A stretch of DNA of 63,522 nucleotides, the filler included, from Folioceros fuciformis (taxonomy: Eukaryota), in the NCBI GenBank assembly GCA_049999805.1. It is 6 parts of 6 records of this genome, joined end to end, with 100 filler letters (N's around TTAATTAATTAA, not from the genome) between each part and the next. Parts side by side here need not be neighbours in the genome. Positions count along the whole stretch, not along the records: positions 60,311 to 63,522 come from JBNGIO010005167.1; 5 more parts are not named here. The stretch is one strand, 5' to 3'. The notes under the pieces were generated by a model. That model saw only the letters and a program-made list of their open reading frames with translations. It did not search any database and was not told where the DNA came from. Positions 19,301-63,522 of the stretch are shown in pieces (position 1 is the first letter of the stretch; each line of letters starts with the position of its first letter). A program made the translations under genes and the position numbers.

Positions 19301-22300
19301 CATGCGTAGTGGTGCGAGTATCAAGATCATAGATTTTGTACCCCTTGATACCTTCAGTATAGCCAACGAACACATATTTTTGAGCTTTATAATCCAGCTT
19401 GACTCGTTGGTCCTCTACCGAGTGAGCATAGGCTAGAGCGCCAAAGACTCTGAGATGATTAATACGGGGCTTATGTGATGTCCACCTTTCATATGGAGTA
19501 GCACCACTGAAGGCCTTTGTTGGAAGGCGCATTTTTATATAATTTGCAATTGCAACAGCTTCTGCCCAATATCCCCTGGACAAGCCGGATACCTTGAGCA
19601 AGGATTTTGCAGCTTGTTGCAGATGCTTGTTGTTAACTTCCGCCAGCGGGTTTTGTGCTGAGGTATAAGGGATAGTTATTTGGCGAGCAATGCCAAGTGA
19701 ACGACAATAGCTGTCGAACTCTTCTGAGCAATACTCGCCTCCACCATCACTCCGTAAGGTTTTCACCAATTTTCCTGTCTACCTTTGTCCAAAAGTCACG
19801 TACTCCTGGAAGAAGCCTAGTGTTTGACTCTTGTTTTTGATGAAGTAGGTGATGGTGTACCGACTCCAATCGTCCACGAAGGATAATATATATTTGGCTC
19901 CTCCAAGAGATGTAGTGGACATGGGGCCACATAAATCAGAGTGCACCACCTCGAGCAGCTTGGTAGCCCTGGTTGGGTTAGAGTCGTAGAATGGTAGCTG
20001 CTGATGTTTTCCAAAACCACATGCCTCACAGAACTGTTTTTTCAATAGACTTGAGCAAGAATTTTTCACGATAAAGTGTGTTATTTGCCACCATAGCTTT
20101 GATCTTGTCAAAGTTAGCATGCCCTAGTCTATAGTGCCATAGCATCGACTACTGATCCCTCAAGGCTGCTTGACTTACTTGTACAGTTGGTGGTGGCAGC
20201 CCAAACTTGGAGGTAAAATCTAAAGCATACAAGTCATTTATGGGCTTACCTATAGCTAGTGTCTTAGACTTATATTGAGGGTCAGTGATGAGACTGTCAA
20301 GGTCTATGAATGTTATGGCTAGGCCATGCTGTTTCTGGAATTTACTAACTGACACTAAATTTTTGACCATTACAGGTACGTGAAAGACATCCATCAGGTT
20401 GATGGTGCTCCTGCTTATTAGTAACACGAGCACTGTGCCCACTCCAGCTATAGTAAGGCCTCTATCATCCCCTAAGAGAACCTCCTACCCATGTGGCATT
20501 TTTGTATAGTGCAGAAAAGATTGCTGATTGCGGCAAATATGTGTTGACGCACATGAATCCAGGTACCACACATCATTGACTTGTGCTGTAGCAACCATAA
20601 ATACTGCAAGTATGGTGTTCTTTCTCTGCATCAGGTTGCTTTCTACTGCAGGTGCAACCCGACGAGGCTCATTTGCCTTCTTTTTCCGACATTCGGATTC
20701 AAAATGACCTGGTATTAAACACCAGTTGCAAGGGCCCTTCTTTTTAGAAGGAGCAGCCCCTAGACACTTCTTAGTTATAGAACTTTTGGTGTTAGTCCAA
20801 GGTTGCCGAGGTGGTGGCCTTCTAGGGCCTCTCTACGTGTAGAGAACCATGTTTGAGGCCTCTCCTTTGTGGGAGGTGCCACCTCGAATTGCATTCCTTG
20901 TTGCCTCTTCCTCGAGAAGGGCACCAACCAGGACAGATAGCATCACAGCTGGGGTCTGGCTTGCAGGAGTTGAATTTTGTACTATTTGAAGCGTTGAACT
21001 GTAGCTGCTCACAAAAGTCCTGTAACTTTCAGGCAGGGAAAGAAGTAAGGCGATTGCAGCTTGCATTTCTGATGTTGTTGTTCCGCTGGATGTCAATTTG
21101 GATCAAAGTGTCCTGAATTTGGTGACATGAGCCTCAATGGTGTCTGATTCCTTCATTTTGCAGGTGTAGAAGGATCAAGTAGCAGTCACCATTGAAGTAC
21201 CATTTACTACCTGGTAAGCTTGGGTTAATGCATCCCAGACGTCCTTGGTTGTAGCTGCATCTCGGGTGTAATCCATCATCGATCCATCTAGTGCAGCTTG
21301 GATCACACCAAGGGCTTGCAAATCCTTTTTGTTCCAACCGTCTTTTTCTGCTTGAGTTGCAGCAATTGCAGGTTTTGGCTGTGCACTAGTTACAACCTCC
21401 CACAGGTCATGCTCTCTAAGGATGGTTTTGACTCGGAGAGCCTAGATGTCGAACTAGGTACCTGAGAACCTATCGTTTTCCTTAAACTCAATTTTTAGAT
21501 TGTGTACTGTGGTATTGTGATTTATTGTACCAGCTGCTTGGCCTTGTGCCATGTTGTGCACAACTTGTGCCACTAACGCAGCTCGGGTAGCTTGGGCAAG
21601 TTGTGGAGCCCTAGTGGCTGCTTGCTGATGTTTGGCGGCTTGATGTAGTTGTGCTAGGTGTAGGTGGGCATCTATCAAGGCTTGGGGAATACCAGGTCCA
21701 CTTGTCTGACCTGTTTCCTCAATAACAGGTTCCTAAAACAGGAAGAGAGGGTCAACATGTATAGGTACATCAGGGTTTGGTCCCTCCTCTGGAGAGCCTC
21801 TCCCTCGCCTAGTGCCTCCTGCTCGACCACTTCCTCTGCCACGGCCTGGTTGGTTATGAGACCCACGACCTCTGCCGAACATCAGTACACCCTCGTGTGG
21901 TCACCTTGCAGCCATCACTTCTGCCCTTGGCTAGAGGTACATTCAAGAAAAGACTCCAGCTTCTAGACAAGTAAATCTAATTTGATGTCTAAGGCTATGA
22001 CTTTGTTAGAAAGGTCTGTAATTTTTATTTGTGTTTGACAGCCTACTGTTTTTATGAGGCCGAAGGTTTCTACAAGCAGCTGACTAGTGGGAGAGGGAAA
22101 AGAAGTAAGATGGTCAGTACATTCACTGCAAAGAATCGATTTATTCTTGGTCAAGACCTGTGATCTAAGGACAAAAATTTGTTGTGCCTTATTTACCTCT
22201 TCTCTAACTTGCCTTCTTCGACGCGCTAGGAGATCTGGCTTGGGCTGTTGTACCTGACTATGCCCAGTGTTGTGCTGATTTGTGAAGATAGGTTTTACAG

Positions 22301-22859
22301 TGTGCGAGAAGATATGATTGAGATTCTTGTGCTGTTTTTGGATTGAATGACCTAGATAACTAGCGAATGGATCAGCAGACAAATTTGGCCTCCTACCTCT
22401 ACCTCTCAGCATGGCGTCTATCAAGAATAGTAATGAAAAACAGCCTCTGCCAGGAAGGTGTCTGCCATTCCCCAAAAACTGATTAGTTCCTTTCTCAAGG
22501 AGTTTATGAGAATGCGAAAATGCTCATGCGGCAGCAATTGAATACAATTCTTGTTGTCACAGACTAGGCAGTGATTGGAGGACATAGCAGGGTCCATGAC
22601 TCTGATACCATATAGATCAGGCTAGGATCGAATGCTTAGAAGAGATTGAACGCAAAGATGATGTTATTGAGCGCACGCTCCTCTTAAAGAAGGAGGTGGC
22701 GGTTGGCCGCGTCCCGTCGTGGGGATGACGATTGGTTTTTAGGGTAAGACGTTTAGTTGCGCCCCTTACATTTGGGACACATCGTTTTATGTGACGGTTC
22801 GTTAATTAAATTTCTTATTGCCTATGTAATGACTACTTAAATAGCTCCTATTTTCCATA
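16375..22859 (-). mobile_element. Copia element B, full length with both 249-bp LTRs (16375-16623, 22611-22859), TA..TA termini
   Basis: LTRs differ at about 13/249 positions by eye. TSD TGTGC/CGTGC. PBS at 22599-22610; PPT at ~16624-16630. Gag, PR (WYLDS), INT, RT (YVDD) and RNase H (KHIDIKHHFIR) all present with stops/frameshifts. Confidence 0.95.
21915..22412 (-). pseudogene. Accessory ORF upstream of gag in element B (~165 aa; one internal TAG)
   Basis: ATG at 22412 (MLRGRGRR), CSEC motif, heptad-like C-terminus; in-frame TGA overlaps the gag ATG as TGATG (21917-21913). Confidence 0.55.
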
Positions 22860-25800
22860 CGTGCCTCCTGACCATCCAGGAAATCAACATGTGGGTCTGC
22901 AGCATTCTCATCACCAGCAACATCATTGTCCAGGCCTTGTAACAGATCTTCTCCATCAGAGTCTGGATAATCAGCTGGTTGTTGAATAATATGTTGTGGT
23001 GGAATTGCTGCAGGCACAGCATGTTCTACAGCTTCAGCAAAGAGATCTAGGCCTGAGCTATCATCCTTATCACACACTTGTGGATCAAAATCATTCATGA
23101 CAGGTATGGTAATTCCAAAATAAGTCTTCAAGCCCTTTTGAGGTGACAAAAGCTCGTCAAAGGTAACACTACGGGCTAACACCACTTTCCTGGTTGCTAG
23201 TTCATATAACTTATATGCCTTAGACATCTCAGAGTAACCAAGAAACAATAAGGGCCTAGCCCTATCATCCAACTTACGTTGTTTATGTTTAGGTAGATAC
23301 GCATAAGCTGTGAAACCAAATACTCGCAGGTGCAAAAGACTTGGTTTCTTCTTCCAAAAGGCCTCGTAAGGAGTTTTACAAGGTACATTGGTTGTCAACA
23401 CTTTGTTCAGGATATAAGTAGTTGTTGTAAGGGCCTCTGCCCAATAGTGTTTAGGCAGTCCTGCCCATCCTAGCATGCTTCTTGTCATGCTCATTAATGT
23501 CTGGTTCTTACGCTCAGCTACCCCGTTCTGCTGTTGTGTATATGGAATCGAGAGCTGTCTTATGATCCCATGGGCTTCAAACAGCGCATCATACTGGTGT
23601 CCAACGAACTCACCTCCGTTGTCAGTGCGAAAGCACTTCACCAGATTTCCAGTCTATCTTTGTATCATAGCAATCCAGTTCTCAACAGACTCAAAAGCAT
23701 CACTCTTGAGGCAAAGTGTGTACACCCAAGTGTAACGTGAATAATCATCTGTTAGTGTCAGGTAATACTCCGCCCCTCCTAGTGACTTAACTTGTAGTTT
23801 GCCTGCAATATCAGCATGGACAAGTTCTAACACTGCATTTGCCCTCTGTGCCTGTTTATTTTTGAAGGGAAGTTCCTTCTGCTTCGAAATAACACAGGAC
23901 TAACAAACCGGGAGGTGCTTAAAGCAAGGGGGAAGTTTTTCCCTAAAGCAATCTAAAGAAGCTATCAGGTTCAACTTCTCTCTGTTAACATGTCCAAGCC
24001 TTGCATGCCACAAGTTTGCTTCAGATATAGTGGAGGTAACATATGCTTCTGGTTCAGCAGAATTATGTAGCTGGTACAATTCATTAACTAGTTTTCCTCT
24101 AGCTATGCACCTACCAGGTCTAGAGAGATCATAAAGACAACAATGACCTTACACATATGAGATGTGGCCCCTGAGTCTATGAACCAAGAAGGCCGAATCA
24201 GCAGAAGAAGACAGACGAACTGATGTTACAGTTAAAACTGTCGAATTGCTCTTGTGTGGAGTAGGCCCCTTGTCCTTTGCAGCAACATGTGCCTCCAGGC
24301 GAGGGTCCTTCTTAGGTTCGCCAGCCTTCTTCTTGCAACAGTCCCGCTCCCAATGGCCGGGTATTTGACACCAATTGCAATTGCCTTGTCGTTTGATGGA
24401 GGGAGTTGAGGAAGTCAAGCCACCAAAGGTATGTCCTGTTTGGTGAGATTTCTTATCCTTCCCCTTCCCGTTTGCAAACGACTTGCCTTTTGCTGCAAAC
24501 AGGACTTTTTCGCTTTTAGAACGAGCTCCTTCACCTGGTCTGTGTCTACTAGCCTCCTCTTGCAGGAGAGCTCCGACCACAGTATTCAAGTTGAGAGAGT
24601 AGGCCTGATTAGCAGCGGCAGCAGCATATGCTACAGTGAGTGCCGAATTTTGTCCAGAAATGAAGGTCTGGTAAGATGAGGGAAGCACAGTATACAGTTG
24701 GGCAACCATCTCGACCTCGCTAATCTTGACCCCTAGCGAAGCAAGTTGTGCTCGCAGTAGTCTCCGCTTGGTGATGCCAGGGCCAACAGGTTCCCCTTCT
24801 CGCATCCTGAATGATTGAAAGTCACTCATAACATGCATAAGGGTGCAAACATTCTGCACCTGATAAGTATCCTTGAGTTGAGTCCAGATTTGAGCTGCTG
24901 TTTCGAGGAACTCAGTAACTGTTGTCGCATTCAATCCTAAAAACAATATTGCAAATGCCACCTTATTTCCTTTGTCCCACTTGAGAATCTCATCTGTTGT
25001 GGGTTGGATTGCTGTTGTGGTAAGTATCTTGTGAGGATACTCACAAGATGTGTGGTTAATCCTCACATACTCCCACACATCTCTAGCATTCATGTTTGCC
25101 TTCATTTGTGCCCTCCAACTTTCATAATTTACAGGCTTGCCATCAAATCGGTCTTTTTCCTTGAACTCACAAGAGTATGACACCGTGCTAGTGGTGACTG
25201 TAGATGCAGCCATATTAAACACAGAGACAACTCCTGAAGTAACAAGATATGATGGAAGGATGAAGGCAAGGAACTGTGCCTGCAGGGATTGTAGAAAAGA
25301 GAACTTTGTGGCTAAGTCCTCGTCGATGTCACTCTATCTGAATCTTCAAACAGCCAGTTTAAGCCAAAAGACATGGACTTAAAGTGAAACGACATTTATG
25401 AAAGGTATGTCCCGTTTCTAAGTTAGCTGTTTTAGGTTTAGATATGAAAAGTCATAAAATAACGTGAAACGATGCAGGTGAACATGAGCACACGACAGGT
25501 GGCAGGACTCCTCAACCGTCGACCTGAGCAAAAGTGCTGGTTGAGATATGGCTGAACACCGTTGGCACTGCGCCTGCTACACCCACCCTGGCGATCCCCC
25601 TCCCAAGCTGAAGATGGGATCCTGAGTCAAGGCACACGGCGCCCCTATAGATCTGATCGCCCACACGGTGACGCCATTGCAGGCTCTTCTCGTGTAGGCA
25701 CCAAGCTTGGCAGGTAGGTTGCAACCCGGGGAGATCTTGCAGAAACAGATCCAACTTCAGCACGCTCCAACCTCAAGGTGAGGGCTGAGAGGGAATTTTA

Positions 25801-40654: not shown

Positions 40655-42736
40655 TTAATAGATATGGAGCGGCAGGCGAGGGGTTGGGACTGCTTTGAGG
40701 TGGTGCTTCCTTGGAACAGTAAGTCCAAAGGTATCAGACATGTCTAGGTCTTCTGGTTTCTGTCCGTGTGAAAGAGACCAGTCGAAGCTGTGGATCAGTT
40801 TAGCGATGAGGGAGGTGGCTACGGTAAAGCCAAGAGAACTTGCAGGGCACATCCTTCTGCCGCTCCCAAACGGAATCATATTGAAATTCTGCCCTTTGAT
40901 GTCAATCTCTCTGTTGCACAACGCAGCAGCCAGAACACTAACGTCAAGGTTGCAACAAAGGGAAGTTTAAAATCACAAGTTTGCAAAGCAATTCGCAACC
41001 ACATAACATTGTGAATGAACGTAGTACCTTTCGATGAATCTATCTGGTCGGAACTGGAGGGGACTATCCCAAGCTTCTGGGCTTTTGTGAAGATTCAGCA
41101 AGCTGAGGAAGATGGTGGTGTTCGCAGGAATGTCGTAGCCCCCAAGCTTGCAGTCTTGCATGGAGTAATGTGGGATAAGAAGGGGAGCGGGAGGATGCAG
41201 CCGCAGCGTCTCCTTCAGAATAGCTTGAATGTACTGGAGATCAGCGAGATCTGATTCGACCAATAGACGATCCTTCCCGACGACGGAGTCCAGCTCTTGC
41301 TGTGCCTTCTGCATCACGGACGGGTTCCTGAGCAGTTCTGACAAAGCCCATTCTGCCACGATGGCAGACGTCTCGGCCCCAGCAAGCACCAAGTCCTGCG
41401 ATCACCGCTCGGCGCAAACACACAGACTAAGACCACAAACACACAGTCACACACACATTGTCTCGAGTGTACAAGAGCAGCATCATGGTCAGGGGATCTT
41501 TCGGTTTGTCGTCCTACCGTCAAAATCCCTTTCATGGATAGATCTTTGTCAACTCCTTTCTCCCCGGGAAGGTTGAGCAGTACCTCCAGGAAGTCATTGG
41601 GTGAGGAGGTAGTGGATTGGCTCATTCGCTGCCTGTGGTTATCTATGATTTGGGATAGAAAGTTGTTAAGCCTGCTCCTGGACTTCTGCATGCTCCTGAC
41701 AGTGAAAGTGTCCAGAAAACTCAGGAAGCGAATGCTGTCTCCCATCACTGGGATCCCGAGCAACCGGTTCATCTCACCGATCAGCGACAGATACTCAGCT
41801 GCTTCCTTTGAATTGACCTGTACAGTGCGCACCATAGATAAACATATCTGCACGCTTGTAACTGCAGTTCTAAGCAGGACATGAATGCTCCAGACTGGAG
41901 CATAAAATTACGGGTTAACATATTGAATTTCCACCATGACTGCGTCCAAGTACGATAGAAGGACGTAACGGTCTGGAGCTAACCATGGCGCCGTGTCTTC
42001 CAATCTGCTCCCCATGCTCGAACTCACAGAAGCGCTTGTTCATCAACATCCGCGTCATGTTGTTCATGGTCACCGTGATGGCCAGTTCGTGGATGTCGAC
42101 CTCTTTCCCACTGTTGTGCAGCACAGATCTCATGGCAGCATCCAGTTCTTGGCGTCTGGATTCCTCGAATCGCTGCGTTCGTTTGGGAGTCAACAGCTCT
42201 GTCACCATAACCTTCCTGAAATCCGTGAACCATGGCGATCATTACATCATTGTGAGCACCACTCTGAGAGCAAGACCAGGTTAAGCTTGCCAAATCTCTG
42301 ATCGTGCGGCCACCATTGACCAGTGACAGGCTTACCTCACGTATTGGTGCCTGGGTCCGAGGGGTTGAAATCCGCACGTTCCTTCCCGGAAAACCAGATG
42401 ATGGAAGGCTGTGAAGGTAGGACGGGATGCGAAATTGTTGTCCTGCACTTTCATCATCTCTTTAGCCATGTCGGCGGATGAGACAACCACAGCCAGCTTT
42501 GAGCCCATGCGGATGGACATGACCGGACCGAACTCGTTGGCCAGCTCCTCCAGGCGGGCGTGCGGACGGGGATGGGAGAAAATGGAGAGGTTTCCCACCA
42601 GTGGCCATGCCGGCGGGCCCGGTGGAAGGCGATACTTCCTTGCTCCGCTGCTGGACCACTGGCGTGCTTGAGTCGCAATGTGGGCAACCGCCCACAATCC
42701 CGCTACCACAAGCAGGACTGCATCAATCCAGTCCAT
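40655..42736 (-). CDS. Cytochrome P450, CYP71 clan (A-type), 5 exons
   Basis: Exons 42736-42336, 42215-42028, ~41860/41818-41518, 41395-41028, 40910-40655. Membrane anchor plus LPPGP, I-helix AGAETS, ETLRLHPP, FRPDRF, heme motif PFGSGRRMCPA. The exon 2/3 junction is ambiguous. Confidence 0.9.
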
Positions 42737-43959
42737 AATGTGACAACTTCTTGTTTTTCAAGGGCAGCAAGTCACCGTGCAATCCAAGGCTCTTCCAAGC
42801 TGGCTCCGTGTCCTAGGCCTGCACTCCCTGATGCTATGAGCCCGAATTCGACCAGCGAAGATGTCACACACCCGGCGCGGCTCCTTTGCAATACGTCAAT
42901 TCCGTGATTTGCCTTGGCTAGCATCGGGGGGAAGGAGGGGTGGCAGCCTCAGGGAAAATTGCCTGGACATCGAAGCAACGCATGTTATAAGCATCCAGGG
43001 GAGTTTCGAAACTGCGTAGCCGATGAGCAGCTGGTTTCGCCTCATCTCAAGGCGAACGATGGCATCCATGTGCTGCGAGTATTGAGGATGTGGCGGGGCA
43101 GTAGCCAGGCTGGCCTCGTCCTCTGCAGCATCTTACATCTCGGAAGATCCTTCCTTGTTGTCTCTCCCCATGTCGTGGGCCCCGGTTCACAGCATCTTGC
43201 AGGAGAGTGAAGTTCAAGTGCACAGTGGAACGCCAGTCTGATGAGAGACGCTCTGATATCGACATTGCAGCGGAGATCATCAGTACCTGCCGGTACCCTG
43301 ATTCCTTGGCAACACTTATCTGAACTCGGTAATGCTGCACAAGTGCTCCTTTCCACCCAATGCAAGCCATGTTCTCAGATGCCATTCACATAACGTTCCC
43401 TGTGCCTTGGATCGTCTTCCCAGGAAAAAGATGCCGCGTCCAAGTGTCGCTCTGGAACCTGACGCCATGGGCTCGGTATTAGCAACTGGAGCTCGCACTG
43501 ACACGGATTGGCATTAAATGCTTGCCAAAGATACATGTGGACGACGAGGGAGGACTCTAGTTACGCATTATGTCCTACACAGACGGTCCTAATAGCTAAG
43601 TTTGTACGCAAATCAAAGCCCCGCCCAAAGTGAAAAGAGCGAAGACATATCAGAGATTCAACCACTTAATTCTTCTGGTTAAATTATTAAATTAATAAGA
43701 ATGCTTGCTTATGTCGTATTGTGAAACAACACTAGCCCGAAACGGCACGATGAAACCCTACCCTTAGCTGTTGCGTTTTATAGATGCCTCCTCACACTCC
43801 CACTCAGCAATAGGCACACAAAGTTTTGCTTTGGAAAATATTATTGTGTGGCTGTTGACTTTGCTTCCTCAATTGTTAGCTTGATTATGTCATTGCCATG
43901 AATTGCTCCAAGTCCTTTTTTTATGTTTATTATGTTTATAAGGAGGAACATGAAGACTT

Positions 43960-49221: not shown

Positions 49222-52200
49222 TGTAATTTACGCAGAGAGCTAGTGTGTTTGCCTCAACTATGTTTTTCTCTACATTAAAAATAAAAGTACAAAATATCAC
49301 TTCAAGTGTTTATTGTCATGCACCTCTTCAACTATGCAACCCTTCACATATTTAGCCCTAATATGAATAACCAGCAAGTAAGCGAGTAACCCTAACGATA
49401 TACCCTGTATGTAAGGGCCTTAACTCGTCACACTCCCTCTCGAGTGCAACGAGCTACACGCTAAGTCCTTGTAGTGGCCACGAGATCCCGCTACCAGCAT
49501 CGCCACCCACCGCCATCGAGTGCTTACCGTCGATAACTATGGAGTCTTAGCTGCTACCAGCCACAATCGCTGCATTCGAACTTGTGCTCTTCCATGTGAT
49601 CCAATTACTAACCAGATTTATCACTATGAAGACCAGGAGCGGAAAGACGTACGCGCGCAGCGAACGGGACCTTAGGAAGCGTACACCAAAGATGGAGCCG
49701 TGCCAGCAAGTTGCCACACTCGGTCCACTAGCTGGCGACAAAGACTGGGAGGAACGGATCAATGTCGGGCAGGCCATCACCATAGGTCGATTCAGGATGA
49801 ACATCAACCTGACAGTGGATTGGGGAGGGCCGATGCCAACAATTGCTTCTGATCCCCAGCTACTGGAGGAGATGGAGAACAGGGAGGGGTTGCTGGACCT
49901 GCTACGGGACACCGCTAAAATTGACCAAATCTTTGAGGGAAGGCTGTGAGAGAAGCTGAGCATGTGTTGGTCGGCAGCCAGGTGACTAAGTATGCAATTG
50001 GCTTCATCCACCTGCTGCTAACCTGCTTGAGCTGCTTGGTATTCTGTTGTGGCACTCACACGCACACTGCTGTTGTCCAGGTATTCAGCTACTGGGGGAG
50101 CAAGGGTAGGTGATTAGCTGTCAGGGTGTCTCCACAAGGTAAACTTATGGAAGATGCTCCTAACTCGGAAGTTGGCACCTACCAGCCCAACCCAACCCAC
50201 CAAATAAGTGAACTATTACTGTTCCATGTGTGCTATGAAGTCACAAATCCCCAAGCCCTCCATGTGCTGATAATGTTTGTGCTTTGGCAGGGCCTTCGTC
50301 AGGATGTCAGCAGTGTTGTCATCATTTCCCACAAAACCCACTTTTGTCACACCTCTGCCCACAGCATCACGGATGTAGTGGTGTTGTACCTCTATATGTT
50401 TGGTTCTGGCGTGAAAACGTGGGTTAGCTACCAAGGCCAGGGCAGACATATTGTCGCACAAAATCAAGGTTGGTTCCTCTTGCTTCTGCCCTAGGTCATG
50501 TAGAAATCTCCTTCCCCATTCTGCTTCCTTCGTGGCTTCTGTAAGCAACTTATACTCTGCCTCAGTGGAGGAGAGTGATATAGATGTTTGCTTTTTGCTG
50601 CTCCAGTTGACAGCCGTAGAGGCTAACAAGAAACAGTACGTGGACAGGCTTTTGCGGGAGTCTAAGTCTGATGCCCAATCAGCGTCCGTAAACCCTGACA
50701 AGATAAGTCTATCCTACCTACTGCTTTTGTATACCAGCCCATGATACATGGTGCCCTTGAGGTATCTGAATATCCGTTTTACTACAATCCAGTGTGCCTT
50801 CCCTGGATTTTCCAGGAATTGGGAGACTCTGCTTACAGCGTATTGTACATCAGGTCTCGTCCAATTTGCCACGAAGATAAGGCTTCCCACAGTGTGCTTG
50901 TAAGGAACTCTTACCATATCTTGTTTCTCCTGGGCAGTCTGAGGGCACATCAGGGTTGTGAGCTTGACTCCTACTGCTGCTGGTGTTGTAGCAGGTCGGC
51001 ATTCCTCTAACTTGAACCTTCGTAGTATCTCGTTAATGTATTTGAGCTGGTGTATGACCATAAGCTTCTCAGTTCTATTACGAATGATCTGGATCCCTAA
51101 GCAGAATCTGAGGGCTCCTATGTCCTTCATTTCGAACTTTTTGCTTAGCAAGCCTTTCACTTCTAACAACAATGGCTGGCTGTTGGTGGCTAGAATCACG
51201 TCGTCTACATATAGTGCTAGGACCACGTACTCTGCCCCTTTGGTAAGCCGATACACGTTTGTGTCAGCCGTGCTCTGCACAAAGTTGATGCTAAGAAGGT
51301 AGATGTGAATCGTAATGTACCACACCCTACCAGACTGTTTTAAACCATATATACATTTCATGAGTTCTAACACCTTGTGTGGGTGCTTCTGATCCACGTA
51401 TGCCTTAGGTTGCTGCATATACAGATCCTCGTCCAAGTCTCCATACAAGAAGGCCGTGCACACGTCCATGTGCTGGAGGTCTAAGTGGTACTCTGTGGCA
51501 AGTGCAAGGATCATCCGGATGGACTGAGCCCTCACAACAGGTGAGAAAGTTTCCTGATAGTCGAGTCCCTCGACTTGTGTGAAACCTCTCGCCACAAGTC
51601 TGGCTTTGAATCCGGCAACCTCACCCTTGGCATTCAGCTTTAATTTAAATACCCACTTACTTGAGATGGGCTTCCTACCATGTGGCAGGTCAACTAGAGT
51701 CCAGGTTTTGTTTTTGATCAACGACTGATATTCGTCTTCAACTGCCACACGCCATTGTGCAGCTTCTGGACCATTGAACGCCTGTGATAAGGTCTTGGGC
51801 TCATCTGGTAAAAGGACTGTTGCTGTTGAAGTGGAGTGCCTGAAATCAATGGATTGATATGGTGGTTCTATCCACTTTGACCTGGCTGGTTTCATTCGTG
51901 TGGAGCGTCGAGGCTCCTATACAGGCAGCTCATCAACATCTGGAACGTGCTCCTCATGTGTAGGAGGATCCTAGGAGGCATTTTCATCAAACAGATCTTC
52001 ATGCTGGTAATCAACGTGATCAAAACCGAATTGTTCATGTTCTGAAAAAACATCCTGCTCCACAGAATCCTGTACTAACACATCAGGTCGTTCTGGTACA
52101 GGTAGAACATGGTCAGGTGCTGGTAGAGCATCATCAACAGGGCCAGCGTCATCTTGGGGATAGTCCACAGGAGGGTCAAGTGCTGGATCTGACTCATCCA

Positions 52201-53255
52201 GATCTGCTGAGTCTTCTACCTCCTCTGAAGCTACAGTCACTCCATCTGGAGCTGGAGTTACTCCCTCTGAAGGTAGTGGCTCACCCATAGGTGCATGTGG
52301 TTCCAAGAAGGTGACACTCCTTGCCAGAACAATGGTATGTCTATGCTTGTCATAAAGTTTGTAAGCTTTGACATTCTCGCTGTATCCTACGAAAATAAGA
52401 CCTTGTGCCCGATTGTCTAACTTCCTCCTCTTTTCGGCAGGGATATAGGCGAAAGCCCGAGAGCCGAAGACTCGGAGATGAAGAATGTTGGGCTTACATT
52501 TCCAGAGTACCTCATAGGGGGTCTGCCCTTTGACAAAACTTGTAAACATCCTGTTCAGTATATAGGTGGCAGCCACCACTGCCTCTGCCCAGTATCCTTG
52601 TGGGAGTCCTGCCCAAAGTAACATGCTGCGAGTCATGCCGAGTAAGGTTTGATTTTTACATTCGGCAACTCCATTATGTTGTGGTGTGTAGGGAATTGTC
52701 AGCTGACGCTGAATCCCATACTCCTGCAGGAAGGCATCAAACTGTGCATTGATGAATTCAGTGCCATTGTCAGTTCGAAGCCATTTAACAACTTGTCCAG
52801 TGTGTCGCTGCACCACAGGAAGCCAGTCTCTGAACAGCTGGAAAGTATCACTTTTTAGCTGCATGGGGAAGGTCCACGAGTATCGACTATAATCGTCAGT
52901 AAGGGTAAGGTAATACCGAGAACCTCCAAGTGATGGCTCGTGAATTTTCCCAGATATGTCAGCATGTATGAGTTCTAACACATGACTGGCCCTATGTGCA
53001 AGTGTGCTTGAGAATGGCTGTTCCTTCTGCTTAGCAAGTATACAGGCTTTACAAATCGGAAGGTCCTTGAAGCATCTAGGGAAGGGTTCTCGATAACAGT
53101 CCTTTCCAGCCATGTCAATGAGCTTTGCCCTTTTGGCATGACCAAGCCTGGCATGCCAAAGAGAAGCTAACACTTGTGAATCTAGCTAACCTGTGCCTGT
53201 TGACAGACCTGCAGGTTGAGACCTACAGTGAATGTCCAAACGGTACAGATCACAG
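49222..53255 (-). mobile_element. Copia element E (INT, RT, RNase H, long 3' region, 3' LTR 49222-49432); 5' part lies in the gap
   Basis: ORFs 51971-53173 (INT), 50714-51895 (RT, YVDD), 50216-50701 (RNase H); PPT GAGAGGGAG followed by TGTGAC...ATTACA. Confidence 0.92.
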
Positions 53256-53355
53256 NNNNNNNNNNNNNNNNNNNNNNNNNNNNNNNNNNNNNNNNNNNNT
53301 TAATTAATTAANNNNNNNNNNNNNNNNNNNNNNNNNNNNNNNNNNNNNNNNNNNN

Positions 53356-53420
53356 ACCATACCACTATTAACCCTTTTTCAACCAAAACAAACTACTACC
53401 CCTAACTTTGGAGGTTCACA
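53356..53420 (-). mobile_element. Terminus of repeat family Y, inserted in the RNase H of element F
   Basis: Reverse complement of 59997-60062 (TGTGAACCTC..GGTTAATAGTGGTATGGT). Confidence 0.75.
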
Positions 53421-54755
53421 GCTACTTCTTATGGCTCCAACAGATAGGACCACCAGCAAAGCTCACCACATATCCTAACACAGACCTCCTAGAGTCCAAA
53501 TCCCCAGCATAATCTGAGTCTGTAAAAACCTCTAGGTCAAGAGCTTCACTGCTATGCTGGTATTTGAGTCCAACATCGAATGTTCCTGTCAAGTATCTGA
53601 AGACTCGTTTAAGACATTGCCAATGCCCCTGTCCGGGGTTTTCTAAATACTGTGACAAGGAGCTTGTGGCAAAAGCAATGTCAGGTCTGGTGGTATTAGA
53701 GGCATATATAAGTTTTCCTACTCCTGTTCTTTAAGGTATGTTCGCCATAACCTCCCGTTCATGCTGAGTCTCAGGGCTCATCTCACAACTGAGTTTGAGA
53801 CCACTAGGAAGAGGGGTTGAAGCTGGTTTGGCGTCCTTAAGACCCATCTGTTCAGCACTATTAAGCACATACCTAGGTTGAGTCAAGGTAATTACTCTCC
53901 TATCCCTATTCCTTTGGATATGAACACCCAAACAGCTTTGTAGAGGACCCAGATTGGTCATCTCGAACTTGCTTGCTAACAGTCTGTTCAACTCAGTAAT
54001 ATAAGTAGGGCTATTGCAGGCCATTATCAAGTCATCTACATAGACAGCTAGGTAACAGACTGTATTGTCCTTTCTGTAGACGTAAAGGCTTCCGTTTGCC
54101 TTGCACTTTACAAAACCTAAGGCCAGAAGCTCTTCATCCAGAGCTTCGTTCCACTTCAGCGCTGATTGTTTAAGGCCGTACAGGGTCTTTATAAGTCGTA
54201 GAACGTAGTCCTCCTTGCCTTGTACCTCATATCCAGGAGGCTGCTACATGTAAATTTCTGTGTCAAGTTTTCCATGTAAGAAGGCTATCTTGACATCAAA
54301 CATTTGCAGCTCGTAGTCCTTGTGTGCTGCAACTGCACATAAAGTACGAAAGGTAGCCATCTTCACAACAGGTGCATATGTCTCAAAGTAGTCAAGCCCT
54401 GGTACTTGTGTGAAGCCTTGAGCAACAAGCCGAGCTTTATATCTGTCAAAGGTTCCATCGGCTTTGACCTTGAGCTTGAATACCCATTTGCAGGATACCA
54501 TCTTTCGGCGTAGAGGTAATTTAGCCAATTCCCAAGTCCCATTTTTGATGAGTGAGTCATACTCAGATTGAATTGCGTTTTTCCATTCTGCAGAATTAGG
54601 CCTCCTGAGTGCTTCCTCGTATGACTGTGGCTCGATGGGATCCAGCAATGTGGCATGTGCTTCAGCTGGCCTGAAATCATGGGATTGGTAGAAGTCTGGA
54701 GGTCGTCGAATACGTTGAGGATAACGACGTTCAGGCTGTGCAACTAGTTCTGGCT

Positions 54756-54949
54756 TGTGAACTTTCCTAATGTGTAGAAAGAGCGGAAGCATGAATTAGA
54801 AAAGATTAAGAAGTACATGGATTAGGGGTCCTTTTATAGAGGACTCGAGCACCCCTTTGTAGGGGTGCGATTGTTTGCTTAACGAGCCAGGGTTAGCCTA
54901 ACTCGCTTAACTGTTGGCTAGGGTTACGTAGCTCTTACTAGTCTTAACA
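54756..54949 (-). mobile_element. Solo LTR (194 bp) nested in element F
   Basis: TG..CA ends; perfect TSD TGGCT at 54751-54755 and 54950-54954. Confidence 0.93.
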
Positions 54950-57733
54950 TGGCTGCTCACGCTGAGGGTCCAGATCATCAAGATTGACTTGTTCAGCATC
55001 TTCAGAAACAGCCTCAGCTCCTACCTCGTCTTCCTCTTGTTCTGAAACAGGGTCAAGAGGTAAGAGATCATGAGGAGGTGGCTCCTATATAGGATCAGCA
55101 ATATTTTCCAAGATTTCCTGGTCTGGGACAGGCTCAAGTTCGGGTGCTAGCTGAAGCTGATCCTCTTGATCCCCACCTGCAGGAGCAACATCCTTAGGAA
55201 GATCCTCAACGTGAGAAACATCCAGATCAAGACGTTCCCAACTGTCAGGAGCAGCATCATCAGCAGGAGAAGCATCATCAGCAACTCCCATTGGCCAGAA
55301 ACACTTTTCGTCAAAGGTAACACTCCTGGAGTATGTAACCTGATTTGTGGATACATCATACAGCTTGTATGCCTTAATCCCCTCTGTGTACCCTAACATC
55401 AGCAACTTCTGTGCCTTGTTAAACAGCTTCTTGCGTTTTTCACGAGGAATAAAGGCGTAAGCAACACATCCGAAAGTCCTGAGATGTTGAATCTTTGGCT
55501 TGATGTTGAATGCCCATAGAAGGCTTCGTAGGGAGTCATCCCTGAAACAATAGTGGTTGGAAGTTTGTTTCTCAAATAAATAGCTTTGATGAGGGCTTCT
55601 GCCCAGTAAGGCAGAGGAAGGTGAGCATTATTCAGCAAAGAAGAGGTAGTCTCTTGCAAAGTGAGGTTCATATGCTCAGCCACTCCGTTCTGTTGGGGTG
55701 TATAAACCACTGTTAACTGTCGCCCAATGCCCTCATTGGTACAGAAAGCTTGAAACTCATGTGAGGTAAACTCCCCACCGTTATCTGAACGCAGGGTTTT
55801 AAGCTGCTTCCCTGTCTAGCGTTCTGCAAACTTGAGATAAGCTTTAAAATGTGTGAAACACTCACTTTTGGCTTTGAGTATGTAGGCAGTGACAAAACGA
55901 GTCTTGTCATCAGTAAAAGTGAGAAAGTATCTCCCACCACCCAATGAGGGCTTGGACAAGGGGCCACACAAGTCTGTATGCACAAGTTCCAAGACTTCAG
56001 AGGCCCTGTGTGGAGCCTTGTTTCGAAAGGCTGCTTGATGGCATTTAGCAAGGACACTGGGTTTGCATAAAGGTAAGGGAACTAACTTCCCAATTGGACC
56101 ATCAGCATATAGGTCACTGAAAGCTAGTTGCTGTAATTTACTACTGTGTGGGTGACCTAATCGAGCATGCCACAACTTAGATTTTCTATGTGTTGTGCAG
56201 AGGTTAGGGAGTCCTCATGTGTGAGATGGGACTGAACTGGACCACTCTTGGTGTGCAGACAAAACAGGTCATGTTCTGAGGACCCGTAAGCTAGAACTTT
56301 GCTGGGATTGAAAGCGTCTATCACCTTACTCTGTGTTGGTAAACAAAATGTGACTGTTGTTGTCTATGTTTAGACGTCTAACAGAGATAAGGTTGTGTGT
56401 CATCTCAGGTACATAGTATACATCTATGAGTGACAGCATGACTCCTGATGGTACAGGAAGCTCAACAGTCCCTCTACCAGGAGAGACAAGTGACCTATTG
56501 TCACCAAGGTAAACATATTGATCCTTGACTGATCTATATGTTGTAAAAGCATTTCTATTGAAGCACATGTGAGCAGTGGCCCCAGTATCAAGGTACCACT
56601 CTGTATACTGACCAACAGTTGGTTTTGCTGACAGACATGTGGGTGAAGAGATGGGATTGATATACTCCTTTGTCCCAACCACAAGCGCTGATGGCGATGG
56701 TTGCTTCTTGACCACAACGTTGGTCTCTGCACTTCCCTCCTTTCGAGGTGGGCTAGCTTGCTTTTTCCTGCAATCCCGTTCCCAGTGACCAGGGATTTTG
56801 CACTAGTTGCAAGTCCCTAACTTCTTATTTTTCTTATTTGCAAATTGTGTTGGGTGGCCTCCTTGCGAGCTGCCACCTCGGGACGAACCAGATCCACCGC
56901 CTCTGGAGTATGGTCTTGCACCACCTCGCCCACGGTTAGATGTAAACAGCGCTTGCTGCCTGCCAGCACGCCTGCCTGATACTCCTTTGGTCGCCTCCTC
57001 TTCCAGGAGGGACCCAACAAGTTCTGCAAATGTTAATTTCTGGTACTTTAAGACCAGCTGATCTGGCCAGCTTAGCCACTTGCATCTGGGATGCATGAAT
57101 GGATGTCACAAAATGTGACCAGGATGGAGGTAATGAAAGCAACAGATAGAGTGTTAACATTTCATCCTTGATTGTCTCCCCAGTAGCTTGTTCTAGCTTG
57201 GACACTAGGGTTCTAAAGGTCATAATATGTCTCTCGACAGATTCTCCTTCACGCATCTTACATTGCTGAAGGTTGTTAAGGGCTGACAATTGATTGGCCG
57301 AATTCTTTCCTGCATACAGCTCTTCCAGGCGATCCCAGATCTCTACAGCAGTCTCGCAGCCAGATGTTTGACGCATCATGTCGGCTATGAGGCCAATTCT
57401 AATAAGGTACACGGCAGCATCATTCCTTTGCTCACGAGCCTCCTTTTGTGGAACTGTTTCTCCTTCTACTGCTAGATATGACCCTTCTGTTGTCTTCCAC
57501 AGTTTTCTGCTCTGGAGTGCGCCTTTCATGCGCATGACCCAAATATCGTATTGGCGTCCATCAAATCTGTCTTTTTCCTTAAAGCCTTCCCCGCCCCCAG
57601 CTACTGATGAGGAGGCTGTATCTCCCATTGTTGGGGTCTACGGGGATAATGAAGCTAAGAAATGAAGCTACTGGCTAGTACACAGAGACAAAACTACAAG
57701 AGTGCAGCTAGCATGTTGACAGGTCTGATCACC

Positions 57734-60210: not shown

Positions 60211-60310
60211 NNNNNNNNNNNNNNNNNNNNNNNNNNNNNNNNNNNNNNNNNNNNTTAATTAATTAANNNNNNNNNNNNNNNNNNNNNNNNNNNNNNNNNN
60301 NNNNNNNNNN

Positions 60311-60952
60311 AAGCACATCGAGATCCAACATCATTATGTTCGGGATGCTGCTGAGAGAGGCTTAGTAAAGATATAGTATGTGCCTACAGATCTTAATGTA
60401 GCTGATGTTCTGACTAAGTCACTTCCTAAGTTTAAACACTGTTTTCATAGGGAAGGACTTGGTCTTGTAGACTGTAGTGGTTATGTCACTCAAGAAATTT
60501 GAAGACATGGTAATGATATTCCTTCTAGCTCCATCAAGTGCAAGGACAATTGTAACTGGAATATTACTTCTGTTCTGGTCATGACTGGTGCGCTACTATA
60601 GAGGTTGTCGCCAGCGACAAACTTCTTGACAGTGTTAGCGACTGGAAGACTTGACAGCCGAGCTGAAGTAGATAGCTTTTGTTACAAACTTTCCAAGCAC
60701 TGATCTCTGATAGAGCTCTTATAACCTCAAGGTGACTGAGAGGGAGAGTTAGAAAGGGTAGCAGTTCACTAGAGTTATGTAACCCTAAGTCATGTTAGCT
60801 TAGCACACTATGTGTAAGGTTGTTTAGCTAGGCTAGTGAAAGGTCACACCCTTTAGGGTGATGCCTATAAAAGCACAACTATTGTACTTTTATATTAATT
60901 CTTAATCATATTCTTTGCTTGAAGACACGCTTCCGCATGTAGTCTTCCAACT
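60311..60952 (+). mobile_element. Copia element H 3' end: RNase H tail, PPT and 3' LTR (60747-60952) with AG..CT termini
   Basis: KHIEIQHHYVRD..ADVLTKSL; PPT GAGAGGGAG at 60738-60746; AGTTAGAA..TTCCAACT; CTATAAAAG TATA box. Confidence 0.75.
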
Positions 60953-62150
60953 ACTATTGCTTTATTCTATCACTATGGCCACCTCCCAAAATGTGGCACC
61001 CATTCCCATCATCAATTGTATGAATGCGACATCTAATTTTAAGGAGAAGGACCGTTTCGACAGCACTAAGTTTGAAATATGGTCCAAACGTATGCGTTCT
61101 GTCTTGAATACCAGATATCTACTTGGCATAGTTGATGGGATTGTCCTCAAGCCCAATGGACCCTCGCCAGCCCTCGACTCTTAGTTGAAAGGCGACAAGC
61201 TTGCTATGCATATCCTTATCTCGGGCTTAGATGAAGTCACTCTTCATTATATTGATGGCGCTACTACTGCTGTAGAGGCTTGGCGGCATGAAGTAGATAT
61301 TTTTCAATCTACCAATGTTATGACATTAGTAACAGTGCGTAATGAATCTTATTCCTTATGCATGCATAATAATGAGAGCATTGGTACTTATGTTGGGAAG
61401 TTTCGTTATCTTCAGGCATAGCTTGCTGCTTTAGGCACCCCTTTAACTGAATCTGAAGCTTGTGTCCAACTGCTTGCCTCCCTTCCCACTAGCTATCAAG
61501 CATTTGTGTCCTCCCTAAATAGCACTATTCGAGAGGCTCATCAAGCGATAACGTCTGGCCGCACACCCAACATTACCATCTCAAAAATTGTTGGCGCACT
61601 CCTGCAAGAAGAGGCTTCTCGTTTCAATGCCTGAACCTCAAAGCATGGTGGTGAAAGAGTTTTGTTTGTTAGCAAAGGCCGTCAAAGACACCAGCCTCAG
61701 CAGCAACATCGTCCTCCTCCACCTGATAAACGACAAACTTTGGTTCCTTCTCATGGCTCTTTCTTACCCGAGCCTAATGATTTCGGCCGCAAGCCCGGTA
61801 CTTGCAACTCGTGCCAGATTCCAGGCCATTAGGAGCCTGATTGCCATAAGGAGAAAGCTGGCGAGCCTCGCCGTCCTCCTAAGTCTGCCAATATGGCCTC
61901 AACCTCCAATCAGATTAAGTTCGATATAGCCCTCACGGTCTTCTTGGTCACTTTCGAATACAAGACCTCTTGGCTATTGGATTCAGCTGCCTCCACACAT
62001 ATATGTTGTCATCACCATATGTTCTCTAAATATCTCTCTATCGAAGCTCACTGCTTTGTTCTTTTGAGCAACGACTTCAGCTTTACTTTTGCAGGCATTA
62101 GCACTGCTACTTTTACTCTTGAAGATGGTTCTGTCCTTCTTTTACGTGAT
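60953..62150 (+). mobile_element. Copia element I fragment (gag, zinc knuckle, protease)
   Basis: FKEKDRFD..W.KRM, CNSCQIPGH, WLLDSAASTHIC; several stops. Confidence 0.85.
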
Positions 62151-62184
62151 TTGGACGTGACATCTTCTATTGGACTCTCACATG

Positions 62185-63081
62185 TATAGGAGGGTGTTGC
62201 TGAGACAAGATTTTGAGGAGATTAAGTATGATCTACAAGAGCTTATAAAGTTGGATGCAATGCAATTTGGATCAAGGGCTCACAAACTTCATTGTTTTTG
62301 GAACAACACGATGCCTAAGCATTTGTTGCAAATACATGCAAATCAGTGCCAAAGGAGTGAGGAGTTTATAATGGATCAAATTTTGGAAGAAGGCGTGCAA
62401 GTAGGCAGGTGGTTTTAGATGATAGACATCCTTTTTATTGTGTAATAAAAAGGGTGAGCTTAGAAGGGCATTACTGACATTTGTCAACTTTGAAAACGCT
62501 AATGCATTCAAATGAGATGGACCTGAAATGGTATTTGACAGCACAAAGAATGTGTGGGATGTTCCGTCACCTAGGGAGAGAAAGGGCAATGGGCTTTGAT
62601 ACAAATTCCACTTATGTGGAGGTTATAACAAGCGAACAAAGAAATAAAAAGCATGGGCACGCTAAGGATTTGAATACTATTAAGTGGCTTACGAGTCAAT
62701 AAAGGTTTATGAGGAGTGGAAGCAAAAATGGAAAGTTATACAGAGTGCAAGATTTAAAAAGGAAGGCTCAAGCGAGGGCAATAAACTAGAAATAGGGGGG
62801 GAGGTCAAAAGGATTAGGGAAGCTAGTGACATGTTTGATGATAATCATAAAGGAAATAAGCAAATGAGGATTAGTGAAGAGGCTGGGGAAGTTGGAGGTG
62901 TGACCAAGAGTTGTGTTGGGTTGGTCGATGATGTAAATGTTTGTGAGAAACAAGAGCATGTGGAATTTCAATGGGATATTTTGGAGGAGATGGGTGTTAA
63001 GGATAAAGAAGATTTTGCAAAGATTTTAGATGATAGGAGAAAGGTGTTTGCCTTTTCCAATAAGGAATTGGGTAGACACAA
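62185..63081 (+). pseudogene. DNMT3-like C5 cytosine methyltransferase C-terminus followed by a gypsy-type pre-RT linker
   Basis: LDAMQFGSRAHKLHCFWNN (motif VIII-like); DQILEEG; ERERAMGF..ST..ITSEQR...G.AKDLNTIKWL (motif IX/X-like); then WDI..KEDFAKILDD..VFAFSNKELG. Frameshifted. Confidence 0.7.
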
Positions 63082-63522
63082 TGTTGAGATGTCACCCCCG
63101 CCATGCTCAAAGGAGGTTAAAACTGTTGAGATGTCACCCCCGCCATGCTCAAAGGAGGTTAAAACAAGTTAGTTGAAGCAAGATGCAGAATCCCAAAATA
63201 AGAGCACTATAACAAGGCTCTTCAACTCAAATAAAAAGGAGAATTACAAAAACAACACAATACAAGTGAAAAGGGAGTTAGACTACATATACTAGGTGGG
63301 TTCATCCCTTCTTTTATGGACCTATGGGTGGCACTCTCATTTCGTGCCCAATATGGGATAAATGACCCCAAACCCTACAATACTTCTTTTGCCTAACATA
63401 GCAAAGTCTAACAAGCTATATATATATATTAATCATAACCTTAATCACTCTTACCACTAATTAGTACAAACTCAATAAGCTGCATTAGAACTAATTAATC
63501 TCAACATTAATCATGCTTAACA
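63082..63522 (-). mobile_element. LTR family X full copy (63124-63522) with a tandem duplication of its terminal 42 bp (63082-63123)
   Basis: Reverse complement of 13033-13437; TGTTGAGATGTCACCCCCGCCATGCTCAAAGGAGGTTAAAAC occurs twice. Confidence 0.93.

Follow-up and report, generated by a model that had tools for sequence, protein, structure and literature searches.

A probable relic of a Ty3/gypsy retrotransposon carrying a DNMT3-like cytosine methyltransferase in Folioceros fuciformis

We analysed a 63,522 nt stretch of DNA from Folioceros fuciformis (GenBank assembly GCA_049999805.1; hereafter the window), in which six parts of six records are joined end to end and the last part, from record JBNGIO010005167.1, begins at position 60,311. 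A preliminary description of this DNA had proposed that a cytosine methyltransferase borne by a gypsy-type retrotransposon is encoded close to the end of the window. We conclude, with a probability of about 0.9, that positions 62171–63085 on the plus strand are a dead fragment of a Ty3/gypsy polyprotein gene, the intact form of which has the order gag, protease (PR), DNMT3-like methyltransferase (DNMT), reverse transcriptase (RT), RNase H and integrase (INT). The surviving part corresponds to the C-terminal 60% of the methyltransferase domain, a linker and the first part of the segment that precedes RT in pol (the pre-RT segment). The methyltransferase portion, at 62171–62699, is referred to below as remnant 1, to distinguish it from a second relic of the same kind near the start of the window (remnant 2).

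Profile hidden Markov model (HMM) searches, tblastn and alignment show remnant 1 to be the part of a DNMT3-like C5 cytosine methyltransferase domain that begins immediately behind motif VI and runs through motif X. A profile HMM (344 positions), built from 124 related DNMT domains, was run against all 2567 six-frame open reading frames (ORFs) of the window, and matched remnant 1 in three pieces: 62161–62415 (E 2.7e-16, profile positions 165–235), 62426–62512 (E 2.4e-3, positions 247–273) and 62478–62699 (E 3.6e-6, positions 295–334), which jointly span positions 165–334 of the profile. The stored relatives gave colinear tblastn matches in three frames (best E 1.5e-19), and MAFFT placed five window pieces colinearly on the relative P0004 (274 amino acids), beginning in the motif VIII region and running to where motif X ends. 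A match this strong is well outside what chance would produce. None of the alignments of remnant 1 contains intron-like gaps, in line with the earlier view that the sequence has no introns. Motifs VIII (62251–62307, reading AHKLH against AHRLR in the family), IX (62573–62612) and X (62637–62690), all on the plus strand, occur in order and are colinear with the relatives and with DNMT3A. Alignments of the family profile to DNMT3 structures pair the very blocks that the preliminary description had named as motifs VIII, IX and X, and the peptides that it quoted are encoded where it had placed them.

A feature search of the Atlas, used as a lead, returned 30 matches, 26 of them in the PF00145 set (score 0.92). 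A phmmer search with 62161–62418 against 1.84 billion representatives yielded five matches at E≤1e-3, of which four (P0002–P0005; E 2.4e-5 to 8.2e-4) are true relatives. The fifth, P0001, is a leucine-rich repeat (LRR) protein whose match came from its repeats, and was discarded as spurious. The four true relatives carry the motifs GWECQD.S, ENV or ENT, and DAAQFGS.AHR.R.FWTN, and two of them lie above the Pfam cut-off of 22 bits for PF00145 (P0002 at 36.9 bits and P0004 at 26.7 bits).

Remnant 1 is followed on the same strand by a poorly conserved linker (62700–62941, within ORF 62684–63172) and then by a pre-RT block of pol (62942–63085; QWDILEEMG...FAFSNKELGRH), which was recognized with pre-RT profiles. 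The distance from the end of the DNMT to the start of the pre-RT block is approximately 81–91 residues, compared with 16–104 residues in the relatives. The profile built from seven proteins with the order PR-DNMT-RT matched only one of the 2567 ORFs, namely ORF 62684–63172 at residues 87–134 (E 2.4e-7); the stretch WDI...KEDFAKILDD..VFAFSNKELG had been correctly recognized as the segment that precedes RT in gypsy pol. The same ORF was also the top match (E 0.011) of a pre-RT profile built from 45 proteins with the order RT-RNase H-DNMT-INT. Because the pre-RT profile matches this ORF, remnant 1 runs into the start of the RT region of pol, as in the gag-PR-DNMT-RT layout. The block breaks off approximately 30–40 residues short of the expected start of the RT domain.

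Nearly all relatives of the domain proved to be Ty3/gypsy polyproteins. A profile search with P0002–P0005 (8000 scored candidates, E≤1e-3) found 164 longer proteins, the best 120 of these 164 at E 1.8e-78 to 2e-49; the DNMT region of P0007, used as the query of another search, gave 62 matches. Local profile domain mapping of the 160 stored proteins revealed two layouts. Layout A, gag-PR-DNMT-preRT-RT-RNase H-INT, was found in 15 of the 160, from Closterium sp. NIES-53/54, Mesostigma viride, the liverwort Calypogeia fissa and also metagenomes. Layout B, RT-RNase H-DNMT-INT(-PHD) or parts of it, makes up the large majority, 128 of the 157 proteins whose DNMT stretch is 200 residues or longer; those with a named source come from the chlorophytes Chromochloris, Chlamydomonas eustigma and Haematococcus, and many others are from metagenome contigs. 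The remaining stored proteins were unclassed (15), had too short a stretch (one) or were a spurious LRR match (one).

The clearest single example of layout A is P0132, an ORF of 2188 amino acids in which Pfam detects zf-CCHC (530–547), an aspartic protease (796–888), DNA_methylase (978–1226; 46.1 bits), RVT_1 (1421–1575), RNase H (1638–1766) and integrase (1895–2061). Three metagenome loci, L001–L003, show the layout A order on genomic DNA, and Pfam confirms it for L002 and L003; the PF00145 score of the L003 ORF is 51.1 bits (cut-off 22). The DNMT is in frame with gypsy RT, RNase H and integrase in the relatives P0132, P0146, P0128, P0126, P0153, P0155 and L001–L003, while in remnant 1 the pre-RT block alone is contiguous with the DNMT. 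No direct repeat pair that could represent long terminal repeats (LTRs) was found in L002 or L003, the contigs of which may be too short.

The catalytic cysteine, the glutamate of ENV/ENT and the arginines of R.R are conserved in at least 90% of the 157 domains. Motif IV of the family is GWECQ, with glutamate before the catalytic cysteine, in place of the proline of the Pro-Cys dipeptide usual in C5 methyltransferases; its tryptophan, cysteine and glutamine are invariant in a 14-sequence alignment, and in the 157-domain alignment glycine, cysteine and glutamine reach 90%, tryptophan and glutamate only 60–90%. Pfam scans of P0007, P0028, P0132, P0146, P0153, P0155, P0154 and the L002 and L003 ORFs detected no PWWP or ADD domain, the reader domains that lie N-terminal to the catalytic domain in host DNMT3 enzymes. 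These relatives carry the catalytic domain only, as would be expected of a captured module.

Two further observations concern members of this family. In L001–L003, a single in-frame TAG, followed by CAG TTA or CAA TCA, lies between the gag-PR-DNMT and the RT-RNase H-INT-PHD parts (L003 5083–5091, L002 4661–4669, L001 2081–2089); P0132, P0146 and the Closterium members have no stop between DNMT and RT. The TAG context in L001–L003 fits UAG-CAR-YYA, the leaky-stop motif of plant viruses. If the TAG were read through, the DNMT would be made together with Gag, in excess over RT. P0092, a gypsy polyprotein of 1974 amino acids with a DNMT domain, bears the source label of a Minisyncoccia bacterium metagenome-assembled genome, and is probably a eukaryotic sequence that was binned into a bacterial genome.

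To place the family among known enzymes, a profile of 14 members was compared with the PDB, where it matched 52 distinct sequences at E≤0.01. The top 29 of these are DNMT3A (16), DNMT3C (1) and DNMT3B (12), at E 3.8e-18 to 2.9e-12. Next in rank are 4onj (5.7e-7), which is labelled 'DNA methyltransferase' and which we take to be tobacco DRM, then M.HhaI and M.HaeIII (both at approximately 2e-6) and DRM2 (2e-3), so that DRM and the bacterial enzymes are weaker in E than the DNMT3 rows by at least five orders of magnitude; no DNMT1 row occurs among the PDB matches at this threshold. In the alignments, motif I, the stretch from motif IV to VIII, and motifs IX and X each find their counterpart, in canonical, unrearranged order. 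By this comparison the family appears DNMT3-like, that is, closer to DNMT3 than to DNMT1, DRM or the bacterial enzymes.

Remnant 1 itself is dead and cannot make an enzyme, because motifs I (AdoMet binding, F.G.G), IV (catalytic cysteine) and VI (ENV glutamate) are missing, both motif VIII arginines are replaced and the coding path is interrupted by four frame breaks and a stop. Homology within 62171–62699 begins only at approximately profile position 165 of 344. The coding path, 62161–63172 on the plus strand, lies (by position modulo 3) in frame 1 from 62161 to ~62394, frame 0 to ~62441, frame 2 to ~62579 and frame 0 to 62699, and then enters the frame 2 ORF 62684–63172. Three of the breaks (near 62394, 62441 and 62579) are in the methyltransferase part and the fourth, near 62690–62700, precedes the downstream ORF; the single in-frame TGA is at 62513–62515. 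The count of three frameshifts given earlier was accordingly too low.

Remnant 1 is accompanied by other copies in the same organism. Remnant 2, at 1574–2066 on the minus strand, is an independent relic of a DNMT domain like that of remnant 1 (profile positions ~148–289), identified by profile HMM, tblastn and tree. It keeps motif VI (ENT at 2009–2001) and the HRLR of motif VIII, is without motifs I, IV, IX and X, and has frame breaks and a stop. Its profile HMM pieces score E 2.6e-8, 2.6e-6 and 9.9e-5, with a further weak piece at 0.21, and in tblastn it was matched by 117 of 125 stored proteins at E≤1e-2 (best 1.85e-19). We found no DNA similarity between the two remnants. In addition, paralogous contigs from the organism's DNA runs, 82–93% alike, cover 62171–63042 and show length differences at three of the four frame breaks. 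These contigs continue upstream of 62182, where the continuation in the frame of the remnant holds ENV (motif VI), and past 63081 in the same frame with pol-like sequence. Because they extend beyond both ends of the remnant, the organism holds further, less truncated copies. The presence of these diverged copies, including the second relic in the window, indicates that a family of such elements was at one time resident in the genome and may be so still.

Two sequencing runs gave results of a different kind. No RNA run was listed as containing the remnant, and the one run guessed to be RNA covers only the abundant repeat at 63082–63522 and is uninformative on expression. When contigs of run X3 were compared with window positions 61800–63522, most changes were C>T (57) and G>A (52), a pattern absent in runs X1 and X2. 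The pattern resembles that of a bisulfite-converted library made from this sample, in which case run X3 may allow methylation at the DNMT relics to be read.

Phylogenetic trees bear on the question of which layout the remnants derive from. We used IQ-TREE (LG+C20 PMSF) on 49 rows, consisting of 14 layout A domains and P0002, 32 of the 128 layout B domains (every fourth) and the two remnants; layout B was split from layout A plus both remnants with an ultrafast bootstrap (UFBoot) of 99 and an SH-aLRT of 98. A FastTree analysis of 159 rows likewise united all 14 layout A domains, P0002 and both remnants in one clade (0.987), with no layout B row inside it. In the IQ-TREE analysis, remnant 2 pairs with the liverwort protein P0028, from Calypogeia fissa (98/93).

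Several results weigh against our interpretation. When nine window pieces, each in a single frame, were scanned with Pfam at E≤10, no methyltransferase was matched; besides copia domains, only weak chance matches were seen (Ctf19_RWD2 at 0.05 and MAD at 0.11). Nothing relevant was found by phmmer in the PDB at E≤10 with 62161–62418 and 62478–62702, the one chance match being to superoxide dismutase (0.035), and of 22 candidates from a word-based protein search with 62161–62418 none scored. Since the single-frame pieces are without a Pfam, PDB or word-search match, the methyltransferase assignment rests on intermediate sequences. The preliminary description had looked to a C5 methyltransferase profile as a check: PF00145 is not reached directly by the window pieces, but the profile of related domains matches them at the E values given above. 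Identity of remnant 1 to any database relative is only 33–37%. 'DNMT3-like' denotes a ranking of solved structures rather than a clade, because the trees are without host DNMT3, DRM and Klebsormidium sequences. Family profiles for RT, RNase H, protease and PHD had no match in the window at E≤0.01, and no LTR pair flanking remnant 1 was found there. A gypsy family with a DNMT between protease and RT, as had been proposed for this genome, does exist in relatives (P0132, L001–L003), on the side of the tree where the remnant falls, but the order is known from those relatives and not from this organism. The branch of remnant 1 is long (1.52) and its composition deviant, and its place within the PR-DNMT-RT side is not fixed by the tree. 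Class-specific HMMs do not separate the layouts, remnant 1 scoring 149.7 bits with the PR-DNMT-RT profile and 141.4 bits with the RT-RNase H-DNMT-INT profile, and remnant 2 scores higher with the latter (95.7 versus 82.6 bits).

These scores lend some weight to the alternative that the relic stems from the RT-RNase H-DNMT-INT-PHD layout, or from an independent capture, and not from the PR-DNMT-RT lineage: the preference of remnant 2 for the RT-RNase H-DNMT-INT profile amounts to 13 bits, that of remnant 1 for the PR-DNMT-RT profile to only 8 bits, and many RT-RNase H-DNMT-INT rows are among the nearest by pairwise identity. We nevertheless regard this origin as improbable. The DNMT remnant is followed by a pre-RT block and not by integrase, both remnants stand outside the RT-RNase H-DNMT-INT clade (99/98), and the block DLNT.kWL and the stretch MV(F/Y)DS.K.VW are common to the remnant and members of the PR-DNMT-RT group. 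It is the contiguity of the pre-RT block that settles the layout of remnant 1.

It could also be argued that the sequence is a pseudogene or retrocopy of a host DNMT3 gene that came to lie among transposons and was never part of one, given that the best relatives among solved structures are host-type DNMT3 enzymes and that neither RT nor integrase of the family was found in the window. Against such an origin, the transposon-borne family is much closer (E 1e-16 to 1e-19), while DNMT3 itself gave no direct match; homology continues unbroken into the pre-RT block of pol; several diverged copies exist in the organism, a second one in the window; and the relatives have no PWWP or ADD domains. A host pseudogene is thus even harder to accept than a relic of the other layout.

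The borders of the fragment identify its neighbours. Upstream, 60906–62150 on the plus strand is a decayed Ty1/copia fragment with in-frame stops, comprising gag and a protease beta-barrel, which is a neighbour and not part of the element. Pfam on 60906–62189 detected Retrotran_gag_2 (2.2e-7 and 1.2e-7), Retrotran_gag_3 (5.4e-3) and Pol_BBD (1.1e-8; profile positions 1–59 of 81). Because these domains are of copia type, the protease directly upstream of remnant 1 belongs to a different element. The 20 bases between the two (62151–62170) were classed as junction filler: copia homology ends at 62150, and the longest paralogous DNMT contig matches from 62171. At this junction other copia copies continue differently behind 62150 (three loose ends among the contigs of run X1 and three in X2), and other DNMT copies diverge before 62182. 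The least credible proposal, that the copia gag-PR and the DNMT-preRT parts form one recombinant family that transposes as such, has in its favour that the parts lie on the same strand some 20 bases apart, but the copia protease domain breaks off after position 59 of the 81 in its profile, the other copies of each part continue differently and the frames do not join.

Downstream, a very abundant repeat occupies 63082–63522 on the plus strand, as defined by self-comparison of the window and by contig depth. It is 96% identical to 13437–13033 (minus strand), 94% to 206–1 (minus strand) and 90% to 31973–31827 (minus strand), giving four copies in the window, and its first 42 bases are tandemly duplicated at the junction (63082–63123 and 63124–63165). 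Over the repeat, contigs of the organism's DNA runs sum to a depth of approximately 1.6e4 to 1e5, compared with 14–170 over remnant 1, so that the repeat exceeds the neighbouring sequence about a thousandfold. The polyprotein fragment would thus have lost its 5' side through replacement by, or recombination with, the copia gag-protease fragment at 62150–62170, and its 3' side would have been cut at 63082 by the abundant repeat. The copy is accordingly truncated on both sides by neighbouring elements, much as was originally supposed.

Both DNMT relics lie 0.4–1.3 kb upstream of a copy of the abundant repeat, in the same orientation. We considered whether the repeat that begins at 63082 might be a 3' LTR belonging to the element, and rejected the idea as unsupported: the repeat copies are 94–96% alike, yet the two remnants share no DNA similarity, and most repeat copies in the reads continue upstream of 63124.

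The remainder of the window holds host-gene-like sequence and further transposons. A cytochrome P450 gene, apparently of the host, lies at 40976–42757 on the minus strand, with an exon at 41401–40976 (Pfam 2.9e-43); the 30 nearest named Atlas clusters of this exon are all P450s, and Streptophyta is the commonest phylum in the rows shown (n=3). An open frame of 850 codons rich in proline, glutamine and serine, at 3894–6443 on the minus strand, is also host-gene-like. Other copia-type elements or fragments, with ORFs for gag, integrase and RT-like sequence, are at approximately 14000–25400 (minus), 50200–57700 (minus) and 60263–60450 (plus), and five pairs of N runs, each of 44 bases, are situated inside or next to them. 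Three window ORFs that matched the family integrase profile were set aside as belonging to other elements.

As for function, in the intact relatives the DNMT domain would be made as part of a Gag-PR(-Pol) polyprotein, and the enzyme may methylate the element's own new cDNA or nearby DNA. The latter role, raised for new cDNA copies in the preliminary description too, is the one proposed for such elements in the Discussion of PMC5890265. We infer both an enzymatic role in intact elements and vertical persistence of the lineage in streptophytes. It is possible, though we consider it doubtful, that F. fuciformis still holds intact, expressed gag-PR-DNMT3-RT-RNase H-INT copies, and that the lineage is old in streptophytes (Mesostigma, Zygnematophyceae, liverworts) and was carried into land plants. 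Should this be true, a mobile element would itself write cytosine methylation, and DNMT3 enzymes borne by transposons would have taken part in the evolution of plant methylomes for a long time and would not be a curiosity of Klebsormidium.

Hosts combat transposons chiefly by cytosine methylation, and transposons with a de novo methyltransferase of their own are therefore of special interest. Relics of DNMT-carrying elements are now seen in a further streptophyte genome, and the DNMT3-like module is widespread in gypsy elements of the green lineage, in two layouts. The relic itself is without function; its value is that of a marker, which points to the places where intact copies should be sought and gives a means of dating the residence of the element family in the plant lineage. 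In the literature that we searched, which left most subscription journals outside, we found no description of such elements for Zygnematophyceae, Mesostigma, liverworts or chlorophytes, nor of a gypsy family with the order RNase H-DNMT-INT-PHD (layout B). Within the accessible parts of the sources concerned, transposon-borne DNMT3 is described only for Symbiodinium and Klebsormidium (PMC5890265; cited in bioRxiv 10.64898/2026.05.21.726589).

Among host enzymes, the animal DNMT3A, DNMT3B and DNMT3C (2qrv, 6u8p, 8tci) have the same order of motifs I, IV, VI, VIII, IX and X and, like the transposon family, a short spacer between motifs VIII and IX. They differ in that DNMT3A has SPCN where the transposon family has GWECQ, and in that the family domain is embedded in a polyprotein; neither PWWP nor ADD was detected in the relatives that were scanned. 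Plant DRM (4onj, 7l4c) is DNMT3-related but a far weaker match (E 5.7e-7 and 2e-3). The motifs of DRM are circularly rearranged, whereas those of the present family are in canonical order.

Other retrotransposons are likewise known to have captured C5 methyltransferases. EpiLTRs of Cymbomonas and Euglena are, like the elements studied here, LTR retrotransposons with a cytosine methyltransferase domain; according to the accessible text of bioRxiv 10.64898/2026.05.21.726589, their DNMTs are sister to DNMT4, have been added at the 3' end of pol and are accompanied by an adenine methyltransferase and a chromodomain. SymbioDIRS-Dnmt3 and SymbioLINE-Dnmt of Symbiodinium also carry a captured C5 methyltransferase, and SymbioDIRS-Dnmt3 is described as Dnmt3-related and as methylating CG de novo (available sections of PMC5890265). 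These elements belong to a dinoflagellate host and have other backbones, DIRS with a tyrosine recombinase and LINE, without gypsy RT, RNase H and integrase.

The closest known counterpart is KnitGypsy-Dnmt3 from the charophyte Klebsormidium nitens, in which an intron-less Dnmt3-related domain lies in a Gypsy Pol (de Mendoza et al. 2018; PMC5890265, in the portions accessible). It is also from a streptophyte, multi-copy and unrearranged in motif order, a likeness drawn from the published description and not from sequence; the same source, as far as accessible, says that the Klebsormidium elements have DIRS-like repeats. The copies in our window differ in that they are dead and lie in a genome that has P450 genes of plant type, and the relatives identified here reach into Zygnematophyceae, Mesostigma and a liverwort. 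The multi-copy and intron-less character of Gypsy-Dnmt3 was recovered, in the form of two remnants in the window, several contigs that are 82–93% alike and a colinear alignment free of intron-like gaps. Remnant 1 would be a further member of this known kind of element, the Gypsy-Dnmt3 of Klebsormidium.

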